From: Escherichia phage vB_EcoM_TH18
Sequence record: ON075799
Direction: 5' to 3' (one strand)
Length of the DNA: 64,000 nucleotides
Within the stretch, counting starts at the first letter, position 1. The number at the start of each line of letters is the position of its first letter. The position numbers and the translations under genes are program-made. Positions 2,161 to 49,142 of this stretch are shown one piece after another. Under the pieces are notes generated by a model, which was not told where the DNA came from, ran no database searches, and saw only the letters and a program-made list of their open reading frames with translations.

Positions 2161-3512
2161 AATTTGTTATTCTCATACTCCATGTGTCTCCACAACACCT
2201 TTGCCCCAGATGGGAAAATTGCTTCCAGAGCTTTCTCCCTGAACTTCGGCTTCCATTCCTTATCGAGTTGCAAATAAATACTTTTTGCTGTATCAAAAAG
2301 CCCACCTGCACCTGTCAATTGAGGTGTTGTCCTACGAAACATTATACATGCTGTCTGCGGGTCATCGACATAAGCAAGCGGCATCAATTGTAGGAGATAT
2401 GATTTTCCACTATTCCCAGTGACAACCACACAATCTTCTAGTCTGGTAACAAAGAAACCTGTTTGTGTTACAAAGCAGTATTTAAACCCATCCGTAGGTA
2501 TAAACTCTTTAAACTCAGCTTTTCTGTCTTTATTAGCCAGTGACCTTAATCCTTTTCCTCTAGCCATAATATTAACAGTATAACTGTCCTTTCCACTTCT
2601 TGTATCATGGTTTATGGTGGTATTATAACCAAGAGAAGATCCTACAAACTGAACAAAATCAGCGTTCATCTTATGGACAGTAAAATATCTACCTGTAAAG
2701 CTGTTATGTGTTTTACCGCCATATGGCTTACAAAAAGAACCATCCCAATGAAAAATCTCATCAAGTATTATCTCCAGTTGTTCATTTGAACACTGATAGT
2801 ATTTCTCTGTAAATTTTTTATCAGGATATTTAGGCCATACAATAACCTCGTACTGTTCCCCAGTGGTATATCTTTCACTGGGTTTTGATCCTCTATCTTC
2901 ATATCTTAATCCAAACTTTTTACAAAGTTCGATTAAGCGGTCATATTTACGCTTTTTAGCAAAGCGCATCTGTGTATAATTATCTTTCCCTTCTTTAACA
3001 ACTCTCCCATCAGCCATGACAGCAACCTGAAGCCGTAATTCCCCTTCTGTCATGTCTATCCCAGGACCATCATAGTTAAATGTAGTTATGAACTTACCTG
3101 TCCAACCTTTTTTAACAGAGTTGTTATGTCTTTCTGCCACTTCAGAAAAAGAAAGTGTTCTTGGCTGTGATTTATAGTCTGGTTTATAAATCACAGTATG
3201 TTCGTCAGATAGCTCTTGACAAATGCCATTACCTTCTATTCTTGTAAGTTTTTCGCAAGGGAGTTTAACAAACTCTAAAGGGGGGATAAATTTAGCCTCC
3301 CCAGTGGCTTTGTCATATTGCAGAATGTCCTGCCCTGACCATTCTGATATCTTAATCCAGCCAGATGGTGTCAACACCTCGTGGTCTTTAGACAAACACC
3401 CGGCGGCCCCACCAATTATTAGAATTTGGGCTTTACTCTCCAAAATCATTTTTTGCTTAGGACTGGCAGGTCCAAATACTTTACTCAAAAGACCTCCATA
3501 TTTTCTATTCAT
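2142..3512 (-). CDS. terminase large subunit-like protein, 5' exon, with in-frame intein
   Basis: N-terminus ...ILIIGGAAG then intein then SGKSYLLQLM: extein junction reconstitutes a GGAAGSGKS P-loop (Walker A). Confidence 0.6.
   Translation of the reverse strand: MNRKYGGLLSKVFGPASPKQKMILESKAQILIIGGAAGCLSKDHEVLTPSGWIKISEWSGQDILQYDKATGEAKFIPPLEFVKLPCEKLTRIEGNGICQELSDEHTVIYKPDYKSQPRTLSFSEVAERHNNSVKKGWTGKFITTFNYDGPGIDMTEGELRLQVAVMADGRVVKEGKDNYTQMRFAKKRKYDRLIELCKKFGLRYEDRGSKPSERYTTGEQYEVIVWPKYPDKKFTEKYYQCSNEQLEIILDEIFHWDGSFCKPYGGKTHNSFTGRYFTVHKMNADFVQFVGSSLGYNTTINHDTRSGKDSYTVNIMARGKGLRSLANKDRKAEFKEFIPTDGFKYCFVTQTGFFVTRLEDCVVVTGNSGKSYLLQLMPLAYVDDPQTACIMFRRTTPQLTGAGGLFDTAKSIYLQLDKEWKPKFREKALEAIFPSGAKVLWRHMEYENNKLDHQGE
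2412..3398 (-). mobile_element. putative intein with LAGLIDADG-type endonuclease domain (residues ~39-367)
   Basis: Begins CLSKDHEVLTP (block A-like), contains LQVAVMADGR and LEIILDEIFHWDGSF, ends ...VVVTGN before Ser+1; interrupts the P-loop. Confidence 0.6.
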
Positions 3513-3583
3513 ACCATAGAGGGTAGTTTACCACGAATAACGATAAAAATAAAGCCCTTATCATTAAATAAGGGCATTGTCAA

Positions 3584-3877
3584 CTATTTATCTGAAGTAA
3601 ATATTGTCTTTACATACTGTTGTAGCGTTCTTAATTTCATACGATCTTCAGCAGCCTTAATGTTGTTTTTCTTGATCACCTCTATAGCATCCGCATTACT
3701 AAGACCACCTGGCAATTTTTCAGGTTCTTTCGGTGGTATCATAGCTTCAGCGGGTGGTCTTGCTAAGATATCGCTTATTATGATCTCTTTTGCAACAGGA
3801 ACAACTCTCTCAGGCGGTGAAGTGCACCCTGTTAACATCAATAATAGAAAAGGAACCATGATGACACACTTTTTCAT
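3584..3877 (-). CDS. o-spanin-like outer-membrane lipoprotein
   Basis: Signal peptide with lipobox LTGC, proline-rich mature part; overlaps the upstream i-spanin-like gene by 4 nt. Confidence 0.55.
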   Translation of the reverse strand: MKKCVIMVPFLLLMLTGCTSPPERVVPVAKEIIISDILARPPAEAMIPPKEPEKLPGGLSNADAIEVIKKNNIKAAEDRMKLRTLQQYVKTIFTSDK

Positions 3878-4275
3878 TTCACCCCCAGACTATCGTTATA
3901 AATATCAACAAACTGGTTATCTAGGCAAACCTGTTTTCCTGCTTGTGTTTTGCTATAACTTTTAACCTTTTTATCAAGGTCTTCTTTCAGTTGGTTATTA
4001 ATTTCTCTCTCTTTCACCAACATGGTTGACAACTCATCGATCTTATCCTGCTGTTGTTTTTTAAAAGCGTTGTTGTGATCTCTAACTTGCTGGTTAATCC
4101 TCTCCCATTTAAGGTCAGTATCGCTGACACCTGCGTTGTAGGATGATGTTAACTGGTCATTATACCAATGCTTTATCTCCACAACACCCCAAACGAGCAT
4201 CACACAACACAAAACGACACCTATCTGTTTTATGTTCTTAGAAAAGAAAGTTAACAGCGTTTTAAACCATATCAT
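3874..4275 (-). CDS. i-spanin-like protein (N-terminal TM helix plus coiled coil)
   Basis: 133 aa; hydrophobic N-terminus (IGVVLCCVMLVWGVV) followed by charged heptad-rich region. Confidence 0.55.
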   Translation of the reverse strand: MIWFKTLLTFFSKNIKQIGVVLCCVMLVWGVVEIKHWYNDQLTSSYNAGVSDTDLKWERINQQVRDHNNAFKKQQQDKIDELSTMLVKEREINNQLKEDLDKKVKSYSKTQAGKQVCLDNQFVDIYNDSLGVK

Positions 4276-5609
4276 GATATATCACCATCACACTCAATAA
4301 TATTTTCAATCTTCAACGTTGTTTTTCTGTTTTCAGAAATACACAGACTATTAAAATTGCTAATATCGTACTGGATCTTAGATGTATCGCTTACAGAAAC
4401 CTCTAACAGAACTGCTCCAGGCTGATATATTGTAAACCCATAACTATCTCCCTCCCCGTTCTCACACAGAATTTTGTACTCTCCTCTTGCCTCCGCTTCA
4501 TCAACATAAAGTCTGAGAGTTGGAAAATTATTTGCTATATCTTCTTTGTGAAGCCCAACATGATGTTTATCTTTTGTTGGCATCATGAGATAGAAAACTT
4601 CCGCAGGACAAACTCCATATAGTTTTGTAAAATATTTCCTACCTGTTGCTTTTCTTAATCTTTGGAAAATACTGAACATATTAACTTTAGATACATCATT
4701 AAACGGCAACGGTTGCACAGGGGTAACATTTTTGTCTACCTGCTGGCAACAAGATTCTAATCTGTCTAGGAACTCAACCAAAGAATCAAGTGAAAACTGT
4801 TTTGTCTCATCAAAGATATCTGACAGTTTCATTCCGTACATCCCGCTAAGATGTGACTTTGCCGATTCCCAACTTTCTATCTGAAGGCTGGCAATAGCCA
4901 TAGCCAGTTTCATTGTCTCTTTTTTCGAAATTGTATAGCCACGAGATTTGTATTTTTCAGATCTCAAAAGTGATATAATCGGGTATTCAGTCTTATGATT
5001 TACAACTAAGACTCTTTGAGCAATATGTTTTAAGAAATTGCTATCAAATTCCCACACACCATCCTTGAAGTTAAAAGCGCCCATGTTGATTGTAAAATCA
5101 ACTTTGCTAAAGATATCTTCTGTTGTTTTGAACACATCCACAGCAACACACTGTAATACAGGATCCTGCCCAAAGTACAGCGTTACGCTCTTATCTGTCA
5201 CACCAACTCTGGTAAGATTTGGGAGATCATCTTCTTCAAGATGAAAATTTTCACATCTGGACAAAGGGTCTGTGAAACATAAATGCGTATCCTGCCCATT
5301 ATCAAGGTTATAAAAATACCTAAAAGTTCTTTTTTGATTTTCCCATCCGTTTGTCTGTGCGGTTAAATCATACTTTCCACTTAAAAGATTTTTATCCATC
5401 ATGTACGCAATGAATATCTCAAGATTTTCCCAAGATGGGAAATACAAATCAAGATCGTTGACTTTACTATTAGAGAACAAAGAGGTTATTGCCCCGCCAG
5501 CTATCTTAACATCCAGCTTCGACAATAAATCATAAACACCTTTTGGTATAAAAGAGCACAAAATGTCGTACTCTCTTTGAAAATCTTCTTTTTTGAAAAC
5601 ATGCAACAT
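4272..5609 (-). CDS. Pol-beta-superfamily nucleotidyltransferase-fold protein, function unknown
   Basis: Start refined to MLHVFKK (ATG at 5609); motif IAGGAITSLFSNSKVNDLDLYF fits the hG[GS]-x9-13-DhD nucleotidyltransferase signature; long C-terminal domain unassigned. Confidence 0.55.
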   Translation of the reverse strand: MLHVFKKEDFQREYDILCSFIPKGVYDLLSKLDVKIAGGAITSLFSNSKVNDLDLYFPSWENLEIFIAYMMDKNLLSGKYDLTAQTNGWENQKRTFRYFYNLDNGQDTHLCFTDPLSRCENFHLEEDDLPNLTRVGVTDKSVTLYFGQDPVLQCVAVDVFKTTEDIFSKVDFTINMGAFNFKDGVWEFDSNFLKHIAQRVLVVNHKTEYPIISLLRSEKYKSRGYTISKKETMKLAMAIASLQIESWESAKSHLSGMYGMKLSDIFDETKQFSLDSLVEFLDRLESCCQQVDKNVTPVQPLPFNDVSKVNMFSIFQRLRKATGRKYFTKLYGVCPAEVFYLMMPTKDKHHVGLHKEDIANNFPTLRLYVDEAEARGEYKILCENGEGDSYGFTIYQPGAVLLEVSVSDTSKIQYDISNFNSLCISENRKTTLKIENIIECDGDIS

Positions 5610-5660
5610 CTTAGCTATCCTTAAGTACAAAACAAGATGCGTAGAGACTAGCACATAAAG

Positions 5661-5682
5661 AAAAACCCCGCAAGAGGCGGGG
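5661..5682 (-). terminator. rho-independent terminator downstream of the tRNA cluster
   Basis: Hairpin ccccgc-aagag-gcgggg with A-run on plus strand (U-run on minus-strand transcript). Confidence 0.55.
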
Positions 5683-5814
5683 TTAGGCATAGGAGAGGAG
5701 ATTGATTGGATTATTATTATAGTTATTTGAGAAAAGTGGCGAAGGAACCTTTACATGTCGAGAGTGTCTTACCGTTTACTCAGCCACGACCCTCCTTAGT
5801 GTCCACTTTAATTC

Positions 5815-5893
5815 TGGTTGCGAGTATTGGAATCGAACCTGCAATCTTCAGGGTATGAACCTAACATGGTAAATCCATTTCCACCAATCTGCA
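5815..5893 (-). tRNA. degenerate tRNA-like element (anticodon-loop CAU; weak acceptor and T stems)
   Basis: Canonical T-loop GGTTCGATTCC, D stem and anticodon arm TTAGG-TTCATAC-CCTGA present, but T stem and acceptor have several mismatches. Confidence 0.3.
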
Positions 5894-5899
5894 ATAATT

Positions 5900-5975
5900 T
5901 GGTGTGACGGACAGGATTCGAACCTGTGACCACCTAGTCTTCAGCAAGGCACTCTACCAACTGAGTTACCGTCAC
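5900..5975 (-). tRNA. tRNA-Phe (anticodon GAA)
   Basis: Manual cloverleaf: acceptor GTGACGG/CCGTCAC, D arm ACTC/GAGT, anticodon loop CTGAAGA, T loop TTCGAAT, encoded CCA. Confidence 0.8.
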
Positions 5976-5980
5976 ATAAT

Positions 5981-6057
5981 TGGTGGGCGATGAGGGACTC
6001 GAACCCCCAAAATTCAGGTTCTAAGCCTGACATGTATACCAATTCCATCAATCGCCC
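5981..6057 (-). tRNA. tRNA with anticodon UAG (Leu-reading) but short variable arm
   Basis: Acceptor GGGCGAT/ATCGCCC, anticodon arm TCAGG-CTTAGAA-CCTGA, T arm GGGGG-TTCGAGT-CCCTC, CCA encoded; D stem has one mismatch. Confidence 0.55.
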
Positions 6058-6071
6058 ATCTATATTAACAG

Positions 6072-6263
6072 TTATGGTTTTCCACGATACACAGAAATAG
6101 TTTTCCCATTAGCATTGATAACATAAGCGGTCTGATCCTCAGACAAAAACACTTTTTGATCAATGCCGGAAATAGCTATAGACTTTTGATGAGCACAATA
6201 CCCAACAATTTTCCCACAAAAAATTTGTTCATCATTTGGAGAGACGACTTTAACTGTTAACAT
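6072..6263 (-). CDS. small hypothetical protein (63 aa) inside the tRNA cluster
   Basis: Start refined to MLTVKVV with RBS agagga 6 nt upstream; the longer ORF-track start would overlap tRNA-Pro. Confidence 0.45.
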   Translation of the reverse strand: MLTVKVVSPNDEQIFCGKIVGYCAHQKSIAISGIDQKVFLSEDQTAYVINANGKTISVYRGKP

Positions 6264-6305
6264 GGTATCCTCTGTACATTTCTGCTTTGATATGTTTATG
6301 TTTGT

Positions 6306-6383
6306 TGGTCTGTCCGGTTGGATTTGAACCAACGACCTGGTCATCCCAAGTGACCCGCGCTACCCAAGCTGCGCTACGGACAG
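6306..6383 (-). tRNA. tRNA-Pro (anticodon UGG)
   Basis: Perfect cloverleaf: acceptor CTGTCCG/CGGACAG, D arm GCGC/GCGC, anticodon arm GGTCA-CTTGGGA-TGACC, T loop TTCAAAT, CCA encoded. Confidence 0.85.
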
Positions 6384-6467
6384 AGAAATGTAGATTTTAA
6401 TTGTCCCAGAATCTACTAACTGGTATCGCTGGCTAGGTGATATCTGTGACTTGATTAAGTCAAGAAT

Positions 6468-6559
6468 TGGCGGTTCCTGAAGGATTCGAACCTTCGGTGG
6501 GGAGATTCATTCCCAACGGCTTAACAGGCCGTCACCATCGACCACTCGGTCAAAGAACC
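6468..6559 (-). tRNA. type II (long variable arm) tRNA with anticodon GUU; identity uncertain
   Basis: 92 nt; acceptor GGTTCTT/AGGAACC (one G-U), anticodon arm ACGGC-CTGTTAA-GCCGT, ~20 nt variable arm, T arm GAAGG-TTCGAAT-CCTTC, CCA encoded. Confidence 0.55.
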
Positions 6560-6568
6560 TGAATATTT

Positions 6569-6645
6569 TGGTGGATCTGGTTGGGGTCGAACCAACAATC
6601 TCTCGATTAAAAGTCGAGTGACTTAAACCATTTGGCTACAAATCC
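6569..6645 (-). tRNA. tRNA-Lys (anticodon UUU), weak D arm
   Basis: Acceptor GGATTTG/CAGATCC, anticodon arm CTCGA-CTTTTAA-TCGAG, T arm GTTGG-TTCGACC-CCAAC, CCA encoded; D stem poorly paired. Confidence 0.55.
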
Positions 6646-6663
6646 GTTAAATTATCTTTAAAA

Positions 6664-6691
6664 TAGCTAATTACTCGCACATAATTAGCTA
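6664..6691 (-). terminator. hairpin plus U-run (terminator-like) within tRNA cluster
   Basis: Inverted repeat tagctaatt...aattagcta followed on the minus strand by TTTTAAAGA. Confidence 0.3.
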
Positions 6692-6878
6692 TACGCAACA
6701 ACTCTCCAAGGAGAGCACACTAATGATCGATTACGATTATATGACTAAATTTAGACCATCATAAGTGTTTGGCTTACGCCAGTAAAGAGCGGACTGCTCT
6801 GGGGTATCGGTAAGATGGTTGCAGCCATCTACCGAAAAATCACACCAAGCAACTAAACAAGCTACATTAAAGATAACT

Positions 6879-6967
6879 TGGAGGAGGCTGACAGAATCGA
6901 ACTGTCACCATATCTCTACAGCGGGACTGGGTTCAAACCAGCTTGTGCACCATGCACCCCAGCCTCC
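6879..6967 (-). tRNA. tRNA-Ser (anticodon UGA), type II
   Basis: 89 nt; acceptor GGAGGCT/AGCCTCC, anticodon arm GCTGG-TTTGAAC-CCAGT, long variable arm, T arm GACAG-TTCGATT-CTGTC, CCA encoded. Confidence 0.7.
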
Positions 6968-7038
6968 AAAGATAGCCTCTGCCGAGGATATACACCCAAC
7001 AAAGGAGGCGCTCAGGTCAGAAGAAATCTGAGCCTTAA

Positions 7039-7132
7039 TGGAGGAAGATGCCAGACTTGAACTGGCACACCCATTTCTGGGTTACTATCTCCTTAGCAGG
7101 GAGATCCCTTACCAAATTAGGGTTAATCTTCC
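7039..7132 (-). tRNA. tRNA-Ser (anticodon GCU), type II
   Basis: 94 nt; acceptor GGAAGAT/ATCTTCC, 3-bp D stem, anticodon arm TCTCC-CTGCTAA-GGAGA, T arm GCCAG-TTCAAGT-CTGGC, CCA encoded. Confidence 0.75.
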
Positions 7133-7153
7133 AATACCTTAGTAATTAAAAAC

Positions 7154-7243
7154 TGGTGGAGAAGGAGAGAATCGAACTCTCAAGCCGTTTTACCAGTCAG
7201 CACATTTCCAATGTGCTTTCGTCGCCAATCGATTTGCTTCTCC
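7154..7243 (-). tRNA. tRNA-Ser (anticodon GGA), type II
   Basis: 90 nt; acceptor GGAGAAG/CTTCTCC, anticodon arm GCACA-TTGGAAA-TGTGC, long variable arm, T arm GAGAG-TTCGATT-CTCTC, CCA encoded. Confidence 0.65.
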
Positions 7244-7252
7244 GTTTTAACT

Positions 7253-7328
7253 TGGCAGGGGATGGTTGATTCGAACAACCGATCACGGGGTCAAAGCCCG
7301 TTGCATTAGGCCACTATGCTAATCCCCT
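7253..7328 (-). tRNA. tRNA-Gln (anticodon UUG)
   Basis: Perfect cloverleaf: acceptor AGGGGAT/ATCCCCT, D arm GCAT/ATGC, anticodon arm ACGGG-CTTTGAC-CCCGT, T loop TTCGAAT, CCA encoded. Confidence 0.85.
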
Positions 7329-7333
7329 TTTGC

Positions 7334-7410
7334 ACGAGAGTGAGGAATAGAACCTCTTAGTCACTGGTTTTGGAGGCCAGCCTTCACCCAGTGAAGTTAC
7401 GCTACTCTCA
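7334..7410 (-). tRNA. non-canonical tRNA-like element
   Basis: Good acceptor (TGAGAGT/ACTCTCG) and T-loop-like GGTTCTATTCC, but D and anticodon regions do not fold into standard arms; no encoded CCA. Confidence 0.3.
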
Positions 7411-7417
7411 TTAAAAA

Positions 7418-7975
7418 CTATTTTCGAAAAGGACTTATGAAAAATGCCAACATCACTCTCTCTCTTGAAAAAGCTCTGTCTTCAGGAACCACACTCTTCA
7501 GTTTCCAACCGACATAAATTCGCCAGTAAAATTGTTTTCCAAACAATCTAAAAGACGGGACAAACGCGAATACACCCCACGCATTGTCATTCCACATCAA
7601 CAAATAGCCTTGTTGGTTATCCTCCACATCAGAGCTTACATGGAGGTTTCCTTTCCACTTTGTCACAGATGTGATTTCACGTCCAAGTACGTGATAGGAG
7701 AAATTGTAGGCTTTATTTCTCCACAACCAAGCAACTCGTTGTAGGTAAACACCAAAACTTCCTATTTTACGGACTTCTTCCCATCTCTCTATGTGTCCTC
7801 TATCACCGTCTATAGGATTATCATATGTCTCCATCCACCTGAAAATATAAGGCAGATGCCCTGTCTTCTCATTATAGAACGGAACAACAAAAGGAGCCAG
7901 AATAACACAGAGAACCGACATAACTGGGTCAAGAGGTGCTAACAGGATCCACGATAAATATTTTAAGTATCTCAT
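7418..7975 (-). CDS. hypothetical protein (185 aa, hydrophobic N-terminus)
   Basis: ORF from six-frame track; start overlaps stop of upstream gene (ATGA). Confidence 0.5.
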   Translation of the reverse strand: MRYLKYLSWILLAPLDPVMSVLCVILAPFVVPFYNEKTGHLPYIFRWMETYDNPIDGDRGHIERWEEVRKIGSFGVYLQRVAWLWRNKAYNFSYHVLGREITSVTKWKGNLHVSSDVEDNQQGYLLMWNDNAWGVFAFVPSFRLFGKQFYWRIYVGWKLKSVVPEDRAFSRERVMLAFFISPFRK

Positions 7976-8202
7976 GCAGGATCAAGCCTAGATATAATGT
8001 ACTGGTTTAAATCTGAATATGGGAAGATACTTTCAAAGATAACCTGTTTAAATCTGAAGCCGCACAAACCGAAAAGTACCTTCTGACACTCACCAAAAGA
8101 GCAATCTTTACCAACTTTTATCACAACCGTATCGGCAATCTGCACACTTTCTATCTCTTTAGATTCATGATGCCGTACTATGATTACTTTAGAAACCATC
8201 AT
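7972..8202 (-). CDS. hypothetical protein (76 aa)
   Basis: ORF from six-frame track; translationally coupled to downstream gene. Confidence 0.45.
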   Translation of the reverse strand: MMVSKVIIVRHHESKEIESVQIADTVVIKVGKDCSFGECQKVLFGLCGFRFKQVIFESIFPYSDLNQYIISRLDPA

Positions 8203-8327
8203 ACTCGTCCATATTAAAGCCTTCTACTAAAGATAGTAGATGTCTAGGGTTGGACCGCAAACGCAACCCCATGGAATTTGTTACGGTCTTCAGTTGACCC
8301 AAGCGGATTTCATTGACATCTTTTAAC

Positions 8328-8402
8328 TGGAGCATCCAGAGGGTATCGAACCCTCGACTTCAGCTTGGAAGGCTGTAGTTTTCCCAATTAAACTATGGAT
8401 GC
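8328..8402 (-). tRNA. tRNA-Gly (anticodon UCC)
   Basis: Acceptor GCATCCA/TGGATGC, D arm GTTT/AAAC, anticodon arm (A)CAGC-CTTCCAA-GCTG, T arm GAGGG-TTCGATA-CCCTC, CCA encoded. Confidence 0.75.
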
Positions 8403-8407
8403 ATATT

Positions 8408-8483
8408 TGGTGGGAGTGGTAGGCTCTGCCCCTACGTCCTCTCGATTATCGGTCGAGCGATCTACTAACTGATCTACACTCCC
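8408..8483 (-). tRNA. tRNA-like cloverleaf with Ile-type anticodon GAU but non-canonical D and T loops and C at position 33
   Basis: All four stems perfectly paired, CCA encoded, but D loop AGTTAGTA lacks GG, T loop is GGCAGAG (no TTC), anticodon loop is CCGATAA. Confidence 0.5.
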
Positions 8484-8546
8484 AAACTGTACTGGCCCAA
8501 CAACCACGATTGGAGGGTATCGTCACACATCAAAGCCAGTACAGTT
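8484..8546. other. long perfect hairpin (13-bp stem, ~37-nt loop) between two tRNA genes
   Basis: aaactgtactggc (8484-8496) and gccagtacagttt (8534-8546) are exact reverse complements. Confidence 0.6.
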
Positions 8547-8551
8547 TTAGT

Positions 8552-8641
8552 TGGTGTGCCGTGATAGAGTCGAACTACCCGAGTCCCTTTCGAGACAGGA
8601 GATTTACAGTCTCCCCCGCTACCCCTACGGTCTAACGACAC
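8552..8641 (-). tRNA. tRNA-Tyr (anticodon GUA), type II
   Basis: 90 nt; acceptor GTGTCGT/ACGGCAC (one G-U), anticodon arm GGAGA-CTGTAAA-TCTCC, long variable arm, T loop TTCGACT, CCA encoded. Confidence 0.7.
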
Positions 8642-8642
8642 A

Positions 8643-8990
8643 TTAACCTTGTTTGAATTGAACAATATCCGTCGAGAACGGTTTAGCTGCCTTAATAGGT
8701 GCTTTTTCTGAGTTATCTTTTTCGAGTAACTCTTCGTTTTCCTCATCAAAGTAATCAGAAAGCATCTGCTCACCTTTCTCAATAACATAACGAGCTATAT
8801 TTTCTCTGATATTGTCTTTTGTATTCACATTCTTCATCAAATCCCTAAGAACCTGATGAGCTTCAGGAATCATTGCAATCAGATTCGTTTTTAAATCTAG
8901 GATATTTTTCTCTAACTGAATTGCATTAGATTCCTCTTTCAGAGGACGACCTTTTCCTCTTCTACGTTTTGTAAGCTGCTTAGTAGCCAT
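8643..8990 (-). CDS. hypothetical protein (116 aa, basic N-terminus)
   Basis: Start refined to MATKQLTKRRRGKG; the longer ORF-track N-terminus overlaps the tRNA cluster; sigma70-like promoter just upstream. Confidence 0.5.
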   Translation of the reverse strand: MATKQLTKRRRGKGRPLKEESNAIQLEKNILDLKTNLIAMIPEAHQVLRDLMKNVNTKDNIRENIARYVIEKGEQMLSDYFDEENEELLEKDNSEKAPIKAAKPFSTDIVQFKQG

Positions 8991-9009
8991 TTTAAAACCC
9001 CACTTAATG

Positions 9010-9039
9010 ATATTATCAAATAAAAACATATCTGTCAAG
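9010..9039 (-). promoter_or_regulatory. sigma70-like promoter (TTGACA, 18-nt spacer, TAATAT)
   Basis: Minus strand reads TTGACA...TAATAT shortly upstream of the ATG at 8990. Confidence 0.5.
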
Positions 9040-9075
9040 TGGTATTTTAACATATTTACCAAGAAATTGAAAGTT

Positions 9076-9152
9076 TGGAGCACGGTGTCGGACTTGAACC
9101 GACATATATCTGTTTTGCAGACAGATCCGTAACCAAATTCCAGCAACCGTGC
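9076..9152 (-). tRNA. tRNA-Cys (anticodon GCA)
   Basis: Acceptor GCACGGT/ACCGTGC, anticodon arm TCTGT-CTGCAAA-ACAGA, T arm GTCGG-TTCAAGT-CCGAC, CCA encoded; D stem weak. Confidence 0.65.
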
Positions 9153-9228
9153 AATAAGTACCCCAGGTAGAGAACCTATAGAGTGGGTCTTACGAGCCGC
9201 GCTGACGATTCTCAAGTTGGGGTTAATC

Positions 9229-9305
9229 TGGTCGAGGAGACAGGATTCGAACCTGTGACCTACGGCTTAGAAGGCCGCTGCTCTATCCAACTGAGCTACA
9301 CCCCG
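9229..9305 (-). tRNA. tRNA-Arg (anticodon UCU)
   Basis: D arm GCTC-AGTTGGATA-GAGC, anticodon arm GCGGC-CTTCTAA-GCCGT, T arm ACAGG-TTCGAAT-CCTGT, CCA encoded; acceptor has one mismatch. Confidence 0.7.
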
Positions 9306-9505
9306 AAAATAAGAATGCTTTATAGTGTATGGTTACTCAACCTCACTCCAACTTCCACAGTTGGTGCTCTACGAGCATGACTACGTTTGAAATCAACGTT
9401 GCGCACCGATAGCTTTCTCACGCATTGTATGCCTCATTCCCAACAAATGCTGATCAGACATTTATATCGAATAATATAAGCTAATACACTATAAAACAAA
9501 CTTGT

Positions 9506-9602
9506 GGCTGGGTGATGGAATCGAACCACCTATGTATTCAACGGCTTCCCCGTCTATTTTCAGGATTATAAATCCTCGCCCTTGCCAAAGGGCTTACCCA
9601 GC
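9506..9602 (-). tRNA. over-long (97 nt) tRNA-like element, anticodon arm ambiguous
   Basis: Perfect acceptor (GCTGGGT/ACCCAGC), D arm GCCC-TTTGGCAA-GGGC, T arm GGTGG-TTCGATT-CCATC; central region has only a 4-bp stem with loop TTTATAA and ~30 extra nt; no encoded CCA. Confidence 0.35.
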
Positions 9603-9604
9603 AT

Positions 9605-9679
9605 TGGTGCTCGCAGCAGGTTTCGAACCTGCAACCCCCTGCTTACAAGGCAGGTGCTCTACCGTTGAGCTATACGAGC
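9605..9679 (-). tRNA. tRNA-Thr (anticodon UGU)
   Basis: Acceptor GCTCGTA/TGCGAGC, D arm GCTC/GAGC, anticodon arm CCTGC-CTTGTAA-GCAGG, T arm GCAGG-TTCGAAA-CCTGC, CCA encoded. Confidence 0.85.
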
Positions 9680-10044
9680 AATAAGACATTGCTTCCGATT
9701 AACAGCCTTGAGGCTTTACAGACCATATCTTGTGAGCCATAACCTGTGCCAAGGATTTCAGATGATAAACGAAATTTTATCTTTCAAGAGTCAACTTTCA
9801 AGTTTCATCTTTTACATTTAACCATTGACCTTTATTGTATGAACTTTTACTTAGTGGAAACAACAAGGCATCTTCGTGTGCCTCGCTGCATCTATGTCCT
9901 GTATTATCCTCATACATATACGATACATGGTGGGGGATATTTAACCTCCAACCCCCAGGAGGCAAGATGATGTAAACTTCGTTAATCAAAAGCAATGTTT
10001 TAAATTTCAAAACAAAGGAACGATAATGATATTATCAGAGCCTT

Positions 10045-10692
10045 TTAGAGAGAGTGCTCAATCTCAATTTCTGTCTTAGCGTTTGACTCAGACAACGCAA
10101 AATCAACGTTAGACAAGAAATCTTCAATCTCTTCTTCAAGAGAACGAATCTTAGAAGCCAGTTCAAGAGGATCCACAACCGATGGTGTGTTCATCATTCG
10201 AATAGGAGCTTCCACAGTCTTAATCTGCTCTGCATCTGGCGCTTTATCACGTTGGATATATGGCGCTCTTGCATTTTCAAGTTTATCTTCCAGAGATTTT
10301 TCTTCTTTTGCCAGAAGAAGCTGTGCAGAAGCACGCTGTGCACAAAGTTTGTTTAACAACTCTTGTTTAAAGCAAATCGTCCGTTTGCGTTCGATTGCCT
10401 CAGCAACTGTCATAGACACATTACCAATTTTGACAATTGTCTCAGCATTAGACTTAACAATTTTTGCTTTCAGTTCATCACGCACTGCCAAGAGGTCTTG
10501 CAGACTTTGATAGTCGTTGATCGCAGATTTCTTAAAATCATCAACAGAGCCGATATAACCCGGAATCTTACAATTATTCTCAGTTCCTTTTGCAATCTTA
10601 ATACAATCAAGATTGTAGATACGCTTATTGATCTTATCTTCAATTTTAGAGATAGAAGCAAGTGCACGAGTTACGGAAATCTTAGTAGACAT
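10045..10692 (-). CDS. hypothetical protein (215 aa, charged coiled-coil-like)
   Basis: ORF from six-frame track; charged, heptad-like composition. Confidence 0.55.
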   Translation of the reverse strand: MSTKISVTRALASISKIEDKINKRIYNLDCIKIAKGTENNCKIPGYIGSVDDFKKSAINDYQSLQDLLAVRDELKAKIVKSNAETIVKIGNVSMTVAEAIERKRTICFKQELLNKLCAQRASAQLLLAKEEKSLEDKLENARAPYIQRDKAPDAEQIKTVEAPIRMMNTPSVVDPLELASKIRSLEEEIEDFLSNVDFALSESNAKTEIEIEHSL

Positions 10693-10765
10693 GCGATCTC
10701 TCCTATGTAAATCAGCTTTGATAAAGTAACTATCCAGAAAAACAAAAACTATGTCAAGAAAAATT

Positions 10766-10957
10766 TTAATCTTTTACAGCATCTTTTATAGAATCACAAA
10801 GATCTTGAACAACATCAGATGTCGGTGACAAAATCATCTCGTCGGCTGCTGCTATAGCATCTGATGCTAAATCAACAAACGGAGTTGTTACCGCAGAAGT
10901 CACTTCAACAGCCGTTATTGTTACTTCGCTTGCAATCTTAAGCAAAGATCCTATCAT
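10766..10957 (-). CDS. hypothetical small acidic protein (63 aa)
   Basis: ORF from six-frame track in an otherwise gene-free gap. Confidence 0.4.
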   Translation of the reverse strand: MIGSLLKIASEVTITAVEVTSAVTTPFVDLASDAIAAADEMILSPTSDVVQDLCDSIKDAVKD

Positions 10958-11033
10958 AATCTCAACCCTCCTGAATATCCGTGATTCCCTTTATTTAACG
11001 ACGCTGGCTCACGGTGGCACTCTCGTCAATAAA

Positions 11034-11357
11034 CTATTTTTTAGTTTTCTTACCGTTTTCTACAGAAATGCTTGTTTTCTGTTTCGCTTCTCGTTCGCGC
11101 TTTGTTTTCCCAGTGCGAATACGATATGAAGCAGAAATAACTTCACCACCAATGACACGAGACACAGATTCGTAATACATTTCAGTATTACCGTCTTCAT
11201 CTTTGCGTTTTTTCAGAACTGCTACAGTTTGCGTTTTACCACCAAGGCGCACATCGTGCGGTGCAGAATGTGTCTGCGTGGATTTTGATCCAAACTGAAA
11301 AGGTTGCTTTATCGCCTCGATAGCTGACACCTTTTTAGCAGACTGTTTCTTAGCCAT
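11034..11357 (-). CDS. hypothetical basic protein (107 aa)
   Basis: Start refined to MAKKQSAKK with strong RBS ggagga upstream; lysine/arginine-rich. Confidence 0.55.
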   Translation of the reverse strand: MAKKQSAKKVSAIEAIKQPFQFGSKSTQTHSAPHDVRLGGKTQTVAVLKKRKDEDGNTEMYYESVSRVIGGEVISASYRIRTGKTKREREAKQKTSISVENGKKTKK

Positions 11358-11408
11358 TAAGTTTTCTCCTCCGAAAACAATAAACATAGTTTATTTCGTG
11401 TGCCACAT

Positions 11409-11485
11409 TTGGTGGCCCCTGCTGGACTTGAACCAGCGACCAAGCGATTATGAGTCACCTGCTCTATCCAACTGAGCTAAGGGGC
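11409..11485 (-). tRNA. tRNA-Met (anticodon CAU; initiator/elongator/Ile2 not distinguished)
   Basis: Acceptor GGCCCCT/AGGGGCC, D arm GCTC-AGTTGGATA-GAGC, anticodon loop CTCATAA, T arm GCTGG-TTCAAGT-CCAGC, CCA encoded. Confidence 0.8.
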
Positions 11486-11818
11486 CGAATCTCTTAATAT
11501 GAGATGATATTATCCTGTATGATCTACATTGTCAAGAGATATTTTAAAATTTTATACATCCCAGTTTTCTTCTTGATAACAACCTTCCCCGAATCCAACT
11601 TCTTTTTCAAAATCAATACCTTTTTTCATACATTCCTCACATTAACAGATATTGTTTTCAAACTCAAAACGTAAAATACGAACTCTGTCAATACACTGCT
11701 GTAATCTACAAAGCAACAACTCAACTTGTTTATGCGTCTCTTCAGTATACGTTTTGGTCATCTTGCTTTTCTCCGTGATCTTTTCATTGCAGCTTCTGCA
11801 CGTCTTTGTTTACGATTT

Positions 11819-12135: not shown

Positions 12136-12342
12136 TTAAACTATTCCAAAAGCCTTGACACCACGCTCGTATTCTGCTACTGCAAGCTCATGAGGAGAAA
12201 GGTCACATGAGGCATCCTTGCAAAGACCGACTTCGATGTAATGTTCTTCTAGTCCATCAAGGATATCTGGCTCCCACGCTTTTTTCATGTCTGGATGGAC
12301 TGATGCACGATTTCTATCGTACTTCGCTACGAGATTTCTCAA
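12136..12342 (-). CDS. hypothetical protein (68 aa)
   Basis: ORF from six-frame track, downstream of the nadV terminator. Confidence 0.45.
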   Translation of the reverse strand: MRNLVAKYDRNRASVHPDMKKAWEPDILDGLEEHYIEVGLCKDASCDLSPHELAVAEYERGVKAFGIV

Positions 12343-47753: not shown

Positions 47754-47985
47754 TCCCGCACCACTACGTGCTGCTGCATGTCACCATGCAGACCAGACCA
47801 TATCTTCATGCTTAAAGCATGTCTGCCGTTTGGGGTGTCATCAGCTTACACTCTACATCCCTACATTCATCAGGATTGGTCGTTAGGCATTTACGGTTGA
47901 TACCGATTTAGCACGGGATTCCCTCCATAGAGGATTCCCCCGTTTAGGCAGATTTTACATGAGCAGTTATAGTTTACCCATGCTT
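47726..47985 (-). mobile_element. putative group I intron in nrdD (no ORF; boundaries approximate)
   Basis: Non-coding insert with a 38-nt block (47755-47792) identical to one in the terminase intron (609-646); S-like agaccatatc and R-like ggtcgtta elements. Confidence 0.5.
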
Positions 47986-49142
47986 GTAACACGCCCGTCT
48001 GAAGAACCTGTTACCTTTTTATTCAACGGTACAGATATGAAATCTGGATAAATCCTTTCAACACAACACTCCATGGCTAATTGCTTTAAGTCGTAGTTGG
48101 GATCGCCAGGTTTCATGTTTACACCATCTTCCAAGAAGAAGATAACTTTTGGAAAAACAGGTGTGACTTTGTCTTTGCCAAGTCCGTTTTTGTGAACAAG
48201 AAGATAATTCTTTGTAATCATTCTCCCAAAATAGGAAGTATCAAGCCCAAGACTCAAGGTGATAAATGGGCATTGACCGTTAGCACTCATCAAGGTATTT
48301 ACCTGATAAAGCAATGTCTGCATAGCATCGTAAACATCTTTTTCCGTCATCTGCATAGCTACACCTTCTGGGTCTGGCAGCCATTGCTCCTGACAAAATT
48401 TTAGATTTTTATCGTAACTTGCCTTGGCATATTGTTTTAATCCTTCATCAATATGGGTGTATGACTGACCACCATATTGAACCGAAGAAACTGATTGGGA
48501 TATCTGGCTAAGAATGGTACAGGCAACACCTATCGATTTCGGCTTTTCTATTTTTGCATTGCCAATTTTAAAACCGTTCTCCAACATATCCCTATAATTT
48601 ACAAGACTGCAATTAGTTAATGGGCTTATCAAATAATCTAAGTCATGTATATGACCATAACCATTTGTATGCCATTCAGCCAATTCTTTTGGTAGAATTT
48701 GAGTTAGTGAGACGTGCTTGCTAAGGATACCCGCGAGAAGATCACGATGGCTACTAACCACCCCACTTGGTTTATTAGCGTTTTCTTTAGTAAATTCATC
48801 GGCAGTTTGTTCTAAGAATCCCGTAATATCTGCAAACAGTTTTCCTTTACCTTCCCTAACGTTATCACGCGTTTTACGATATTCAATATACGCCCGTGCA
48901 GCGTTCTTGAGGTCAAGATCCATTAGTGAATCTTCCACAATGCGGTGAATATCACAAACAGCCACTTTCTCTTGCGGTGGTTCTGATTTTTCCAGAGTTT
49001 CATAGGCTTGCTCGCCAACTGCACACGCCAGAGGATATGATTTCTCACCATAACCAGCAGCAATTAAAGCGGCTTCTGCCGCTTTAATAACTTTCACACC
49101 ATCATAATCTTCTTCACGCCCATCACGTTTAACAACTTTCAT
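47967..49142 (-). CDS. nrdD: anaerobic ribonucleotide reductase NrdD, 5' exon (N-terminal region)
   Basis: N-terminus MKVVKRDGREEDYDGVKVIKAAEAA (ATP-cone-like); ORF 3' end likely runs a few codons into the intron. Confidence 0.75.
   Translation of the reverse strand: MKVVKRDGREEDYDGVKVIKAAEAALIAAGYGEKSYPLACAVGEQAYETLEKSEPPQEKVAVCDIHRIVEDSLMDLDLKNAARAYIEYRKTRDNVREGKGKLFADITGFLEQTADEFTKENANKPSGVVSSHRDLLAGILSKHVSLTQILPKELAEWHTNGYGHIHDLDYLISPLTNCSLVNYRDMLENGFKIGNAKIEKPKSIGVACTILSQISQSVSSVQYGGQSYTHIDEGLKQYAKASYDKNLKFCQEQWLPDPEGVAMQMTEKDVYDAMQTLLYQVNTLMSANGQCPFITLSLGLDTSYFGRMITKNYLLVHKNGLGKDKVTPVFPKVIFFLEDGVNMKPGDPNYDLKQLAMECCVERIYPDFISVPLNKKVTGSSDGRVTSMGKL

Follow-up and report, generated by a model that had tools for sequence, protein, structure and literature searches.

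A phage tRNA-Ile(GAU) gene with a co-varied elbow and its possible bearing on escape from host tRNA-directed enzymes

A locus in the DNA of Escherichia phage vB_EcoM_TH18 (sequence record ON075799; the window referred to below is the whole stretch of 64,000 nt that was analysed) raises two questions: (i) is a perfectly paired transfer RNA (tRNA) cloverleaf that deviates at positions 18, 33, 54 and 55 a tRNA at all and (ii) if so, is its altered elbow, the region of D-loop/T-loop contact, of use to the phage. For the first question, the comparisons described here indicate a genuine tRNA-Ile(GAU) gene that is probably functional, and we consider it very likely that the product works as a tRNA-Ile and that the changes in its elbow are compensated. 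As a tRNA it is unremarkable; what is notable is the compensated elbow, which is recurrent. For the second, our reading of the sequences gives escape from host enzymes that act on tRNAs a slight preference over neutral, compensated drift. The window is 98.6% identical over 900 bases to Escherichia phage Av-05 (Vequintavirinae, Avunavirus; GenBank KM190144.1), and the locus is called Av-05-type in the comparisons below; Escherichia phages 18-1-2, 19-1-2 and 24-2-1 are 100% identical to the window.

Position n of the gene corresponds to window coordinate 8484-n (Table 1). Its 5' half reads GGGAGUG UA GAUC AGUUAGUA GAUC G CUCGA CCGAUAA UCGAG and its 3' half AGGAC GUAGG GGCAGAG CCUAC CACUCCC A CCA. 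All 21 stem pairs are Watson-Crick; the stems have the standard 7/4/5/5 lengths, and the D- and T-loops comprise 8 and 7 nt. The minimum-free-energy (MFE) fold reproduces this cloverleaf exactly, at -26.6 kcal/mol and with 60% of the ensemble and a z of -2.6. The perfect pairing, the encoded CCA, the C at position 33 and the T-loop GGCAGAG that had been pointed out in the original prediction are all confirmed by the minus-strand sequence. The covariance-model check proposed there also turned out in favor of a tRNA: the Rfam tRNA model RF00005, whose gathering threshold is 29 bits, scores the locus at 53.4 bits, with E-values of 1.2e-8 in a search of the whole window and 7e-11 in a local search, and the locus belongs to this family both by score and by its co-varying 7/4/5/5 cloverleaf. 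A tRNA model built in this analysis (R1) gives 75.3 bits, a value that is not independent, as the gene is among the 12 training sequences of R1. ARAGORN did not call the locus, either in the window or in the local region; we attribute this to a limit of the tool and do not count it against the gene. Two other kinds of Rfam match were discarded, a permuted-tmRNA match at the level of noise (15 bits, E 0.5) and 'Plastid-ycf2' matches that are antisense artefacts on the opposite strand of ordinary tRNAs. A BLAST search with the 76-nt gene gave no match at E ≤ 0.01 in 5,426 complete Escherichia coli genomes, and thus no prophage copy; E. coli ileV is too diverged for that search and was taken by accession instead.

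Which elbow nucleotides are missing depends on the register of the D-loop. The original prediction held that both G18 and G19 are absent. G18 is indeed gone, with A in its place, but G19 is retained: canonical orthologues have AGUUGGUA opposite the D-loop AGUUAGUA in the alignment, and AGTTGGTA in FBB1 and KaOmega stands against AGTTAGTA here, which places A at 18 and G at 19. In the T-loop, U54 and U55 are both substituted by G and C56 is retained. Relative to a canonical elongator elbow, G19 and C56 are therefore present, G18, U54 and U55 are replaced by A, G and G, and the anticodon loop has C33 instead of U33. A shifted register with canonical loops, which had been raised as a way in which the observation might dissolve, does not exist; one and the same register results from the Rfam covariance-model alignment, from the MFE fold and from comparison with 11 orthologues. 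It is also incorrect that both partners of the D-loop/T-loop contact have been lost. The G19-C56 pair is intact, and the alterations are confined to G18·U55 and U54·A58, both partners having changed in each.

The gene order tRNA-Tyr – tRNA-Ile – tRNA-Gly is common to the window, PVP-SE1, Seu621/KpS8, Mydo and Hena1, and identity to the annotated tRNA-Ile genes of PVP-SE1, Seu621, Mydo, Hena1 and 4MG is 75-88%; by sequence and position, the gene is the Vequintavirinae tRNA-Ile(GAU). The closest known relatives are the tRNA-Ile genes of PVP-SE1-like phages (Seunavirus and the KpS8 group of Mydovirus), which occupy the same slot between tRNA-Tyr and tRNA-Gly at ~88% identity and have in common with it the acceptor stem, the anticodon arm, C33, the A18-G19 D-loop and the G55-C56 T-loop. 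They are annotated as tRNA-Ile, whereas the Av-05 gene is not, and they differ from it in having A54·A58 rather than G54·G58, in three compensatory stem pairs and in one variable-loop change. In all, the Av-05-type and PVP-SE1 genes differ at nine positions, eight of which form four coordinated pairs: the stem changes 7-66 (A-U to G-C), 11-24 (C-G to A-U) and 50-64 (C-G to U-A) and the 54/58 change from A·A to G·G, leaving a single change at the unpaired position 47. For nine random substitutions, the probability of at least three compensatory pairs with none broken is 1.1e-5. In an alignment of 12 Ile sequences that includes E. coli ileV, 100% of the stem cells are paired and 15 of the 21 pairs have changed on both sides; none of 500 shuffles and no slid register comes close. 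Because the substitutions are compensatory, the sequences place the cloverleaf under selection and exclude a decaying pseudogene or a chance cloverleaf.

The decoding identity is conserved as well. The positions that we take to be the identity elements of isoleucyl-tRNA synthetase (IleRS), A73, G34 A35 U36, A37, A38, U12-A23 and C29-G41 (Nureki et al. 1994), do not vary between E. coli ileV, the genes of the phages and those of the bacterial arrays described below (alignment A10). Pair 4-69 is A-U here and C-G in E. coli.

To judge by the same alignments, the elbow was rebuilt by co-variation, with the outer G19-C56 pair kept and the inner contacts swapped as matched pairs. G18·U55 is replaced by A18·G55, and U54·A58 is replaced by G54·G58 in the Av-05-type gene or by A·A in the PVP-SE1 group, where the T-loop alleles are AGCAAAG and AGCGAAG. 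The elbows of phage tRNAs were surveyed more widely with a general tRNA covariance model built from the window tRNAs, by scanning the window and 36 phage loci recruited through the Ile anticodon-arm pattern. Of the 433 matches obtained, 389 were distinct, and in 367 the T and acceptor stems were sound and the register was right; it is to these 367 tRNAs that the following counts refer. They are rule-free counts of the D-loop dinucleotides present in each T-loop class, the MAFFT alignment A10 having been set aside for the 18-55 and 19-56 counts because D-loops of unequal length are misaligned in it by one column. Where the T-loop has U55-C56, the D-loop contains GG in 350 of 352 tRNAs, and where it has G55-C56, the D-loop has A18-G19 in all six. 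U55-U56 T-loops are accompanied by G18-A19 (6/6), giving an A-U pair at 19-56, and U55-G56 T-loops by G18-C19 (2/3), giving a C-G pair. Positions 54 and 58 are U/A in 355 tRNAs, A/A in five, G/G in three and A/U in two, with C/G and U/G as single outliers, and no mixture of A and G was seen in this set.

The six G55 cases are the tRNA-Ile genes of PVP-SE1, KE22, Seu621 and Av-05 and two genes for tRNA-Val, with the anticodons GAC and CAC, on a viral contig that is unrelated, IMGVR_UViG_3300000271_000011 (L032 in our survey). The tRNA-Val genes have the T-loops GGCAGGA and GGCAGAG and the D-loops AGUUAGGA and AUUCAGGA. Listed in the order CAC and GAC, they lie at 11454-11526 and 12229-12301 of that contig, and their T-stems, GCAGG/CCUGC and GUAGG/CCUAC, are those of PVP-SE1 and Av-05, respectively. 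Genes for an SNF2 helicase and a phage integrase are present on the same contig. Other compensated elbows among the phage tRNAs include a reversed A54...U58 in tRNA-Ile (AUCGUCG) and tRNA-Glu, U56 with G18-A19 (an A19-U56 pair) in tRNA-Ile, tRNA-Lys, tRNA-Pro and tRNA-Leu, and G56 with G18-C19 in tRNA-Val and tRNA-Gly (loci L016 7240-7314 / L031; L020 4003-4075; L036, L038, L041; L035).

A scan of bacterial sequences carrying the anticodon arm places A18·G55 also in tRNA arrays of Verrucomicrobia, in most array members and across many isotypes. Their T-loops read either UGCRA or, where 54 and 58 are exchanged, AGCRU. Among well-formed tRNAs, A18·G55 accounts for 9/11, 11/12 and 5/7 in the arrays of L044, L045 and L060. 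These arrays lie at 2804-5840, 3080-5336 and 6479-8000, respectively, of Verrucomicrobia/Akkermansiaceae contigs from metagenome-assembled genomes and comprise 12 or more isotypes. In L044 and L045, a Ro60/TROVE-vWA gene (Pfam PF05731) is located directly downstream of the array, in open reading frames (ORFs) at 6252-7757(+) and 5279-7018(+) with E-values of 1.7e-18 and 2.1e-13, and the genes upstream of the arrays are housekeeping genes (pyruvate kinase, UbiA). Ro60 binds tRNA-like Y RNAs.

Correlated changes in the inner contacts, together with their recurrence in unrelated tRNAs, are the signature of a compensation that preserves the L-shape rather than of a loss, and from these patterns the L-shape should be preserved. 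The original suggestion of a tRNA with an unusual fold is thus right to the extent that this is a tRNA-Ile(GAU) orthologue with a non-canonical elbow interior; its reasoning from lost contacts finds no support, as the contacts have been replaced in a correlated manner. In a literature search of incomplete coverage, no naturally occurring A18·G55 elbow was found to have been described, which is weak evidence of novelty.

Both types of elbow circulate among closely related phages. Across 42 nt, the AGCAAAG allele shows 100% identity among 20 phage records, which come from Seunavirus of Salmonella and from the KpS8 group of Mydovirus of Klebsiella, and the canonical UUCAAGC allele is found on the same backbone in 11 records. 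Mydo, which has the canonical allele, and Seu621, which has the variant, are 96-100% identical in the flanks of the gene and 85.5% identical within it; all of the differences fall in the D-arm and T-arm and are paired, and the acceptor stem and anticodon arm are identical. On this sequence pattern, the event looks like patch recombination or allele replacement in near-identical genomes. The records list one host, Klebsiella pneumoniae K23, both for Seu621 and for the K54 recombinants, close relatives in which this backbone has a canonical elbow.

The second departure, C33, is distributed differently from the elbow. The anticodon loop CCGAUAA is invariant in all phage orthologues, those with a canonical elbow included, and C33 is without exception in the phage and array sequences of alignments A1 and A10; E. 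coli ileV has CUGAUAA, with U33 (alignment; also PMC12482277). The 20-nt arm CTCGACCGATAATCGAGAGG, which contains C33, is present exactly in 25 viral loci, where it is joined to many different acceptor stems, and the U33 version is present in seven. The same arm is exact in 25 bacterial contigs and, in the loci examined, always lies inside dense tRNA arrays and not in rRNA operons. The bacterial carriers (L043-L067) belong to Acidobacteriota, Steroidobacteraceae and Verrucomicrobia and have arrays of 10-25 tRNA genes; Povalibacter uvarum NZ_JACHHZ010000006 (L055) is an example. It seems that a C33 tRNA-Ile marks accessory tRNA sets in phages and bacteria. U33 is near-universal in elongator tRNAs, C33 being known mainly from eukaryotic initiators (PMC5041475), and C33 is reported to be an anti-determinant for the bacterial enzymes that form N6-threonylcarbamoyladenosine at position 37 (t6A37; PMC9654439). 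The t6A37 determinant U36 A37 A38 is present in the tRNA-Ile alongside C33, and we predict from the sequence that the modification does not form.

Several known tRNAs resemble this one in part. Nuclease-resistant phage tRNAs include the T5-type tRNA-Lys that acts against PARIS AriB, tRNA-Tyr against retron PtuAB and tRNA-Thr against P2 OLD, as well as anticodon-loop variants of mycobacteriophages. Like them, the tRNA-Ile is a copy of a host isoacceptor that differs at nuclease sites (C33 at the CdiA-CT EC536 site and G54-G55 at the Cash site). In those cases, however, it is the stem or loop of the anticodon arm that has changed, and resistance to cleavage or rescue of infection has been demonstrated, whereas here the most striking change is in the elbow and any resistance would be a prediction. 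Eukaryotic cytoplasmic initiator tRNA-Met has an A54·A58 Hoogsteen pair (PMC7912444) and, in many species, C33 (PMC5041475), both of which are found in the PVP-SE1 allele; the initiator belongs to another domain of life, has another role and anticodon and keeps G18 and Ψ55, and the likeness is therefore a local structural one. The non-proteinogenic tRNA-Gly of Staphylococcus aureus, which serves cell-wall synthesis, does without the conserved G18 and U55 and is still aminoacylated (PMC4574755). It has U18U19 or C18U19 and no C56, so that the 19-56 pair is lost, whereas G19-C56 is kept here and 18 and 55 change together; the combined loss of G18-G19 and U55-C56, with no 19-56 pair left, that characterizes this type of non-proteinogenic tRNA is not found in the tRNA-Ile. 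Finally, tRNA-Pyl and animal mitochondrial type II tRNAs function without G18, G19 and TΨC motifs (PMC7609411), but with altered stem lengths, small D-loops and other tertiary networks, in contrast to the standard cloverleaf seen here.

The reading that we prefer, a phage elongator tRNA-Ile whose co-varied elbow helps it to escape host enzymes, has as a whole statement a probability of roughly 0.4 in our estimate. The tRNA-Ile would be co-transcribed with its neighbors, processed, charged by host IleRS and used to read AUU and AUC, which together make up 5.2% of the codons in the long ORFs of the window. The flat face of G19-C56, used by RNase P and the ribosome, would stay available; this face is described as a docking surface for RNase P, the ribosome and T-boxes (PMC4810234). 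With no U54 or U55, neither 5-methyluridine at 54 (m5U54) nor pseudouridine at 55 (Ψ55) could be formed, and C33 is predicted to let the tRNA escape t6A37 formation, leaving it in a hypomodified state. It also lacks the 'UUC' site cut between U54 and U55, and the site between C32 and U33, of known tRNA nucleases, and might thereby escape cleavage. At these sites, it has C33 and G54-G55 where E. coli ileV has U33 and U54-U55. The CbCash Schlafen nuclease, to which most tRNAs are substrates, cuts the T-loop 5' of U55, and a single mutation of U54 or U55 abolishes cleavage (PMC13462974); CdiA-CT EC536 cuts tRNA-Ile(GAU) between C32 and U33 (PMC11724271); and tRNA-Ile(GAU) is a secondary target of HepS, a Salmonella prophage nuclease (PMC13043305). 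Escape of phage tRNAs from nucleases by sequence changes in an arm or loop is established for Lys, Tyr and Thr (PMC12445682; PMC10264068). The likeliest benefit would be that AUY decoding persists when host tRNA-Ile is attacked or when T-loop-directed host enzymes act.

A broader form of this proposal is that A18·G55, with 54·58 as U·A, A·U, A·A or G·G and with G19-C56 kept, is a recurrent and selected 'orthogonal elbow' of accessory tRNAs, an idea that we regard as unlikely in its full form. Its bearers would be the tRNAs of phage clusters and of bacterial arrays, some of them beside a Ro60 gene. The face used by RNase P and the ribosome would be kept, and the U54-U55 (and G18) substrates of TrmA, TruB, TrmH and Schlafen/Cash enzymes would be removed; in tRNA-Ile, this elbow would be joined with C33 and the block to t6A37. 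Our literature search, again of incomplete coverage, found no T-loop escape described for phage tRNAs, and neither van den Berg 2023 (PMC10264068) nor the Sf14 study discusses the C33 or the T-loops of tRNA-Ile.

Several observations weigh against an escape function. t6A37 is a positive element for E. coli IleRS, and its loss could be a cost and not a benefit. The altered elbow is found in one of about 19 tRNAs of the phage, and because only one is altered a broad T-loop nuclease would still disable the remaining tRNAs; CbCash cleaved 28 E. coli tRNAs (PMC13462974). The U33C substitution is without effect on the Kluyveromyces lactis gamma-toxin, an anticodon nuclease (PMC2275089). The existence of canonical alleles on the same host implies that the variant elbow is not required. 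Lastly, the preponderance of C33 over U33 is biased, as the loci were chosen through the Ile anticodon-arm pattern.

The strongest competitor, to which we give a probability only slightly below that of the escape reading, also takes the gene to be a functional tRNA-Ile but regards the odd elbow and C33 as selectively neutral: phage tRNAs are needed for minutes, T54, Ψ55 and Gm18 would be dispensable over that time and the inner contacts could then drift as long as they are compensated, with the same solution recurring because few alternatives are structurally viable. The survey fits this picture in that ~6% of the phage tRNAs have a non-canonical elbow, almost always with the matching partner change, and in that the affected isotypes are Ile, Val, Lys, Pro, Leu, Glu, Asp, Phe, Ala and Gly; so do the single altered tRNA of this phage and the coexistence of canonical and variant alleles in near-identical genomes on the same host. 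Drift has more difficulty with the positions involved, 18, 33, 54 and 55, all of which are sites or determinants of host enzymes, and with the Verrucomicrobia arrays, where G55/A18 extends over 12 or more isotypes in entire arrays and is hard to obtain by independent drift. The complete conservation of the 42-nt allele through 20 records and different hosts, and the ratio of 25 to seven loci for C33 and U33 on an identical anticodon arm, likewise speak for something other than drift.

The remaining alternatives deny that the RNA decodes. A tRNA-like RNA acting outside translation, whether it serves as decoy or sponge to titrate a nuclease or tRNA-binding defence protein of the host or is bound by a quality-control protein in the way that Ro60 binds bacterial Y RNAs, would account for the absence of three near-universal elongator nucleotides (G18, U54 and U55) and of U33. 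It has a parallel in the S. aureus non-proteinogenic tRNA-Gly, whose altered D- and T-loops divert it from the ribosome (PMC4574755), and in the Ro60/TROVE gene that adjoins A18·G55 arrays in Verrucomicrobia. A decoy would not, however, need GAU, A37, A38, A73, U12-A23 and C29-G41, which are invariant in all orthologues; nor would it be expected to retain the G19-C56 face, to stand in line with ordinary tRNAs with its CCA encoded or to fill a slot that canonical-elbow orthologues occupy in relatives and that is thereby marked as a decoder slot. The different role envisaged in the original prediction has little support in view of the invariant Ile identity positions, the encoded CCA and the compensatory stem substitutions, and we judge it improbable. 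Decay or chance pairing is far less probable still. ARAGORN rejects the gene, the Av-05 record leaves it unannotated and the genome paper lists only 9 tRNAs, points in favor of a pseudogene, but an Rfam E-value of 1e-8, 21/21 Watson-Crick stem pairs, compensatory substitutions at P about 1e-5 and an allele family conserved in at least 24 phage records effectively refute it.

The tRNA-Ile lies within a tRNA gene cluster that is entirely on the minus strand (Table 1). CCA is encoded in 16/16 of the ARAGORN-called cluster tRNAs, and these other 16 window tRNAs all have a GUUC(R)A T-loop and a GG D-loop. Our count of 16 ARAGORN calls, the tRNA-Ile and two weak candidates (about 19) compares with 9 tRNAs reported in the Av-05 genome paper (PMC4463512); the GenBank record has no tRNA annotated in the interval, where at least 17 clear tRNA genes are present.

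Table 1. Coordinates of the tRNA-Ile(GAU) gene, its elements and other features of the window
Feature	Position	Strand	Description
tRNA gene cluster	5815..11486	minus, all	16 ARAGORN-called tRNAs, tRNA-Ile and two weak tRNA-like candidates
tRNA-Ile(GAU) gene	8408..8483	minus (8483→8408)	76 nt, CCA encoded; Rfam RF00005, MFE fold, synteny
D-loop AGUUAGUA	8463..8470	minus	A14 G15 U16 U17 A18 (8466) G19 (8465) U20 A21; sequence read
Anticodon arm CUCGA/UCGAG	8441-8457	minus	sequence read
Anticodon loop CCGAUAA	8446-8452	minus	C33 at 8451; anticodon GAU 8448-8450
T-loop GGCAGAG	8424..8430	minus	G54 (8430) G55 (8429) C56 (8428) A57 G58 (8426) A59 G60
3' CCA, encoded	8408..8410	minus	discriminator A73 at 8411
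tRNA-Gly	8328-8402	minus	5 nt downstream of tRNA-Ile
tRNA-Tyr	8552-8641	minus	upstream of tRNA-Ile, beyond 68-nt hairpin
Tyr-Ile spacer	8484-8551	minus	68 nt, long hairpin
tRNA-Lys(UUU)	6569-6645	minus	anticodon stem identical to that of tRNA-Ile
'tRNA-Asn(GUU)'	6468-6559	minus	92 nt, called by ARAGORN
tRNA-Trp(CCA)-like gene	7333-7411	minus	degenerate; T-loop UUCUAUU
Weak tRNA match	9506-9602	minus	Rfam 33.1 bits; directly downstream of tRNA-Thr
Group I intron	47774-48014	minus	matches Rfam RF00028 over the full length of the model (79.8 bits, E 1e-18)

The spacer between tRNA-Tyr and tRNA-Ile folds into a hairpin with a 14-15-bp closing stem (-26.3 kcal/mol, z -4.5; 0/200 shuffles equally stable), and in Seu621 an unrelated 84-nt insert with an inverted repeat directly follows tRNA-Ile. 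Signals for processing, or small palindromic elements that have inserted here, are possible explanations of both. The anticodon arm of tRNA-Lys(UUU), CUCGA-CUUUUAA-UCGAG-AG, differs from that of the tRNA-Ile, CUCGA-CCGAUAA-UCGAG-AG, at positions 33-35 only. The gene called as tRNA-Asn(GUU) has a long variable arm, and its class-II-like body and discriminator G are unusual for Asn; in the PVP-SE1 annotation, the Asn gene, at 85 nt, and the Lys gene, at 86 nt, are likewise over-long. The weak match downstream of tRNA-Thr has a 7-bp acceptor stem, a variable region of ~30 nt, a canonical UUCGAUU T-loop and a 3' end of C-ACA instead of CCA. Its anticodon loop can be read as UUUAUAA (anticodon UAU, codon AUA); AUA is used 12.3 times per 1000 codons in the window, and the corresponding slot of PVP-SE1 holds a second 'tRNA-Ile' with the odd loop AAGAUUC. 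The tRNA-Trp-like gene scores 16.5 bits with our own model and 32 bits with the tRNA-Sec model, and PVP-SE1 has a tRNA-Trp at that place.

Phage tRNAs are now seen as a counter-defence against host tRNA nucleases, and the escape changes documented so far are all in the anticodon arm. The description in 2026 of a bacterial Schlafen that cuts the T-loop between U54 and U55 led its authors to name the targeting of phage tRNAs as an open question (PMC13462974). If the escape reading is true, the elbow of the Vequintavirinae tRNA-Ile would be the T-loop counterpart of the anticodon-loop escape known for phage tRNAs. Mydo and Seu621 provide a natural isogenic allele pair for this question, with a canonical and a rebuilt elbow on otherwise identical tRNAs. 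Genes with rebuilt elbows are overlooked by ARAGORN, which leaves a gap in annotation. For G18·Ψ55 and T54·A58, contacts that are near-universal, there is a viable and recurrent alternative, A18·G55 with a purine·purine pair at 54·58, which is useful for the study of RNA structure and for the design of orthogonal tRNAs.

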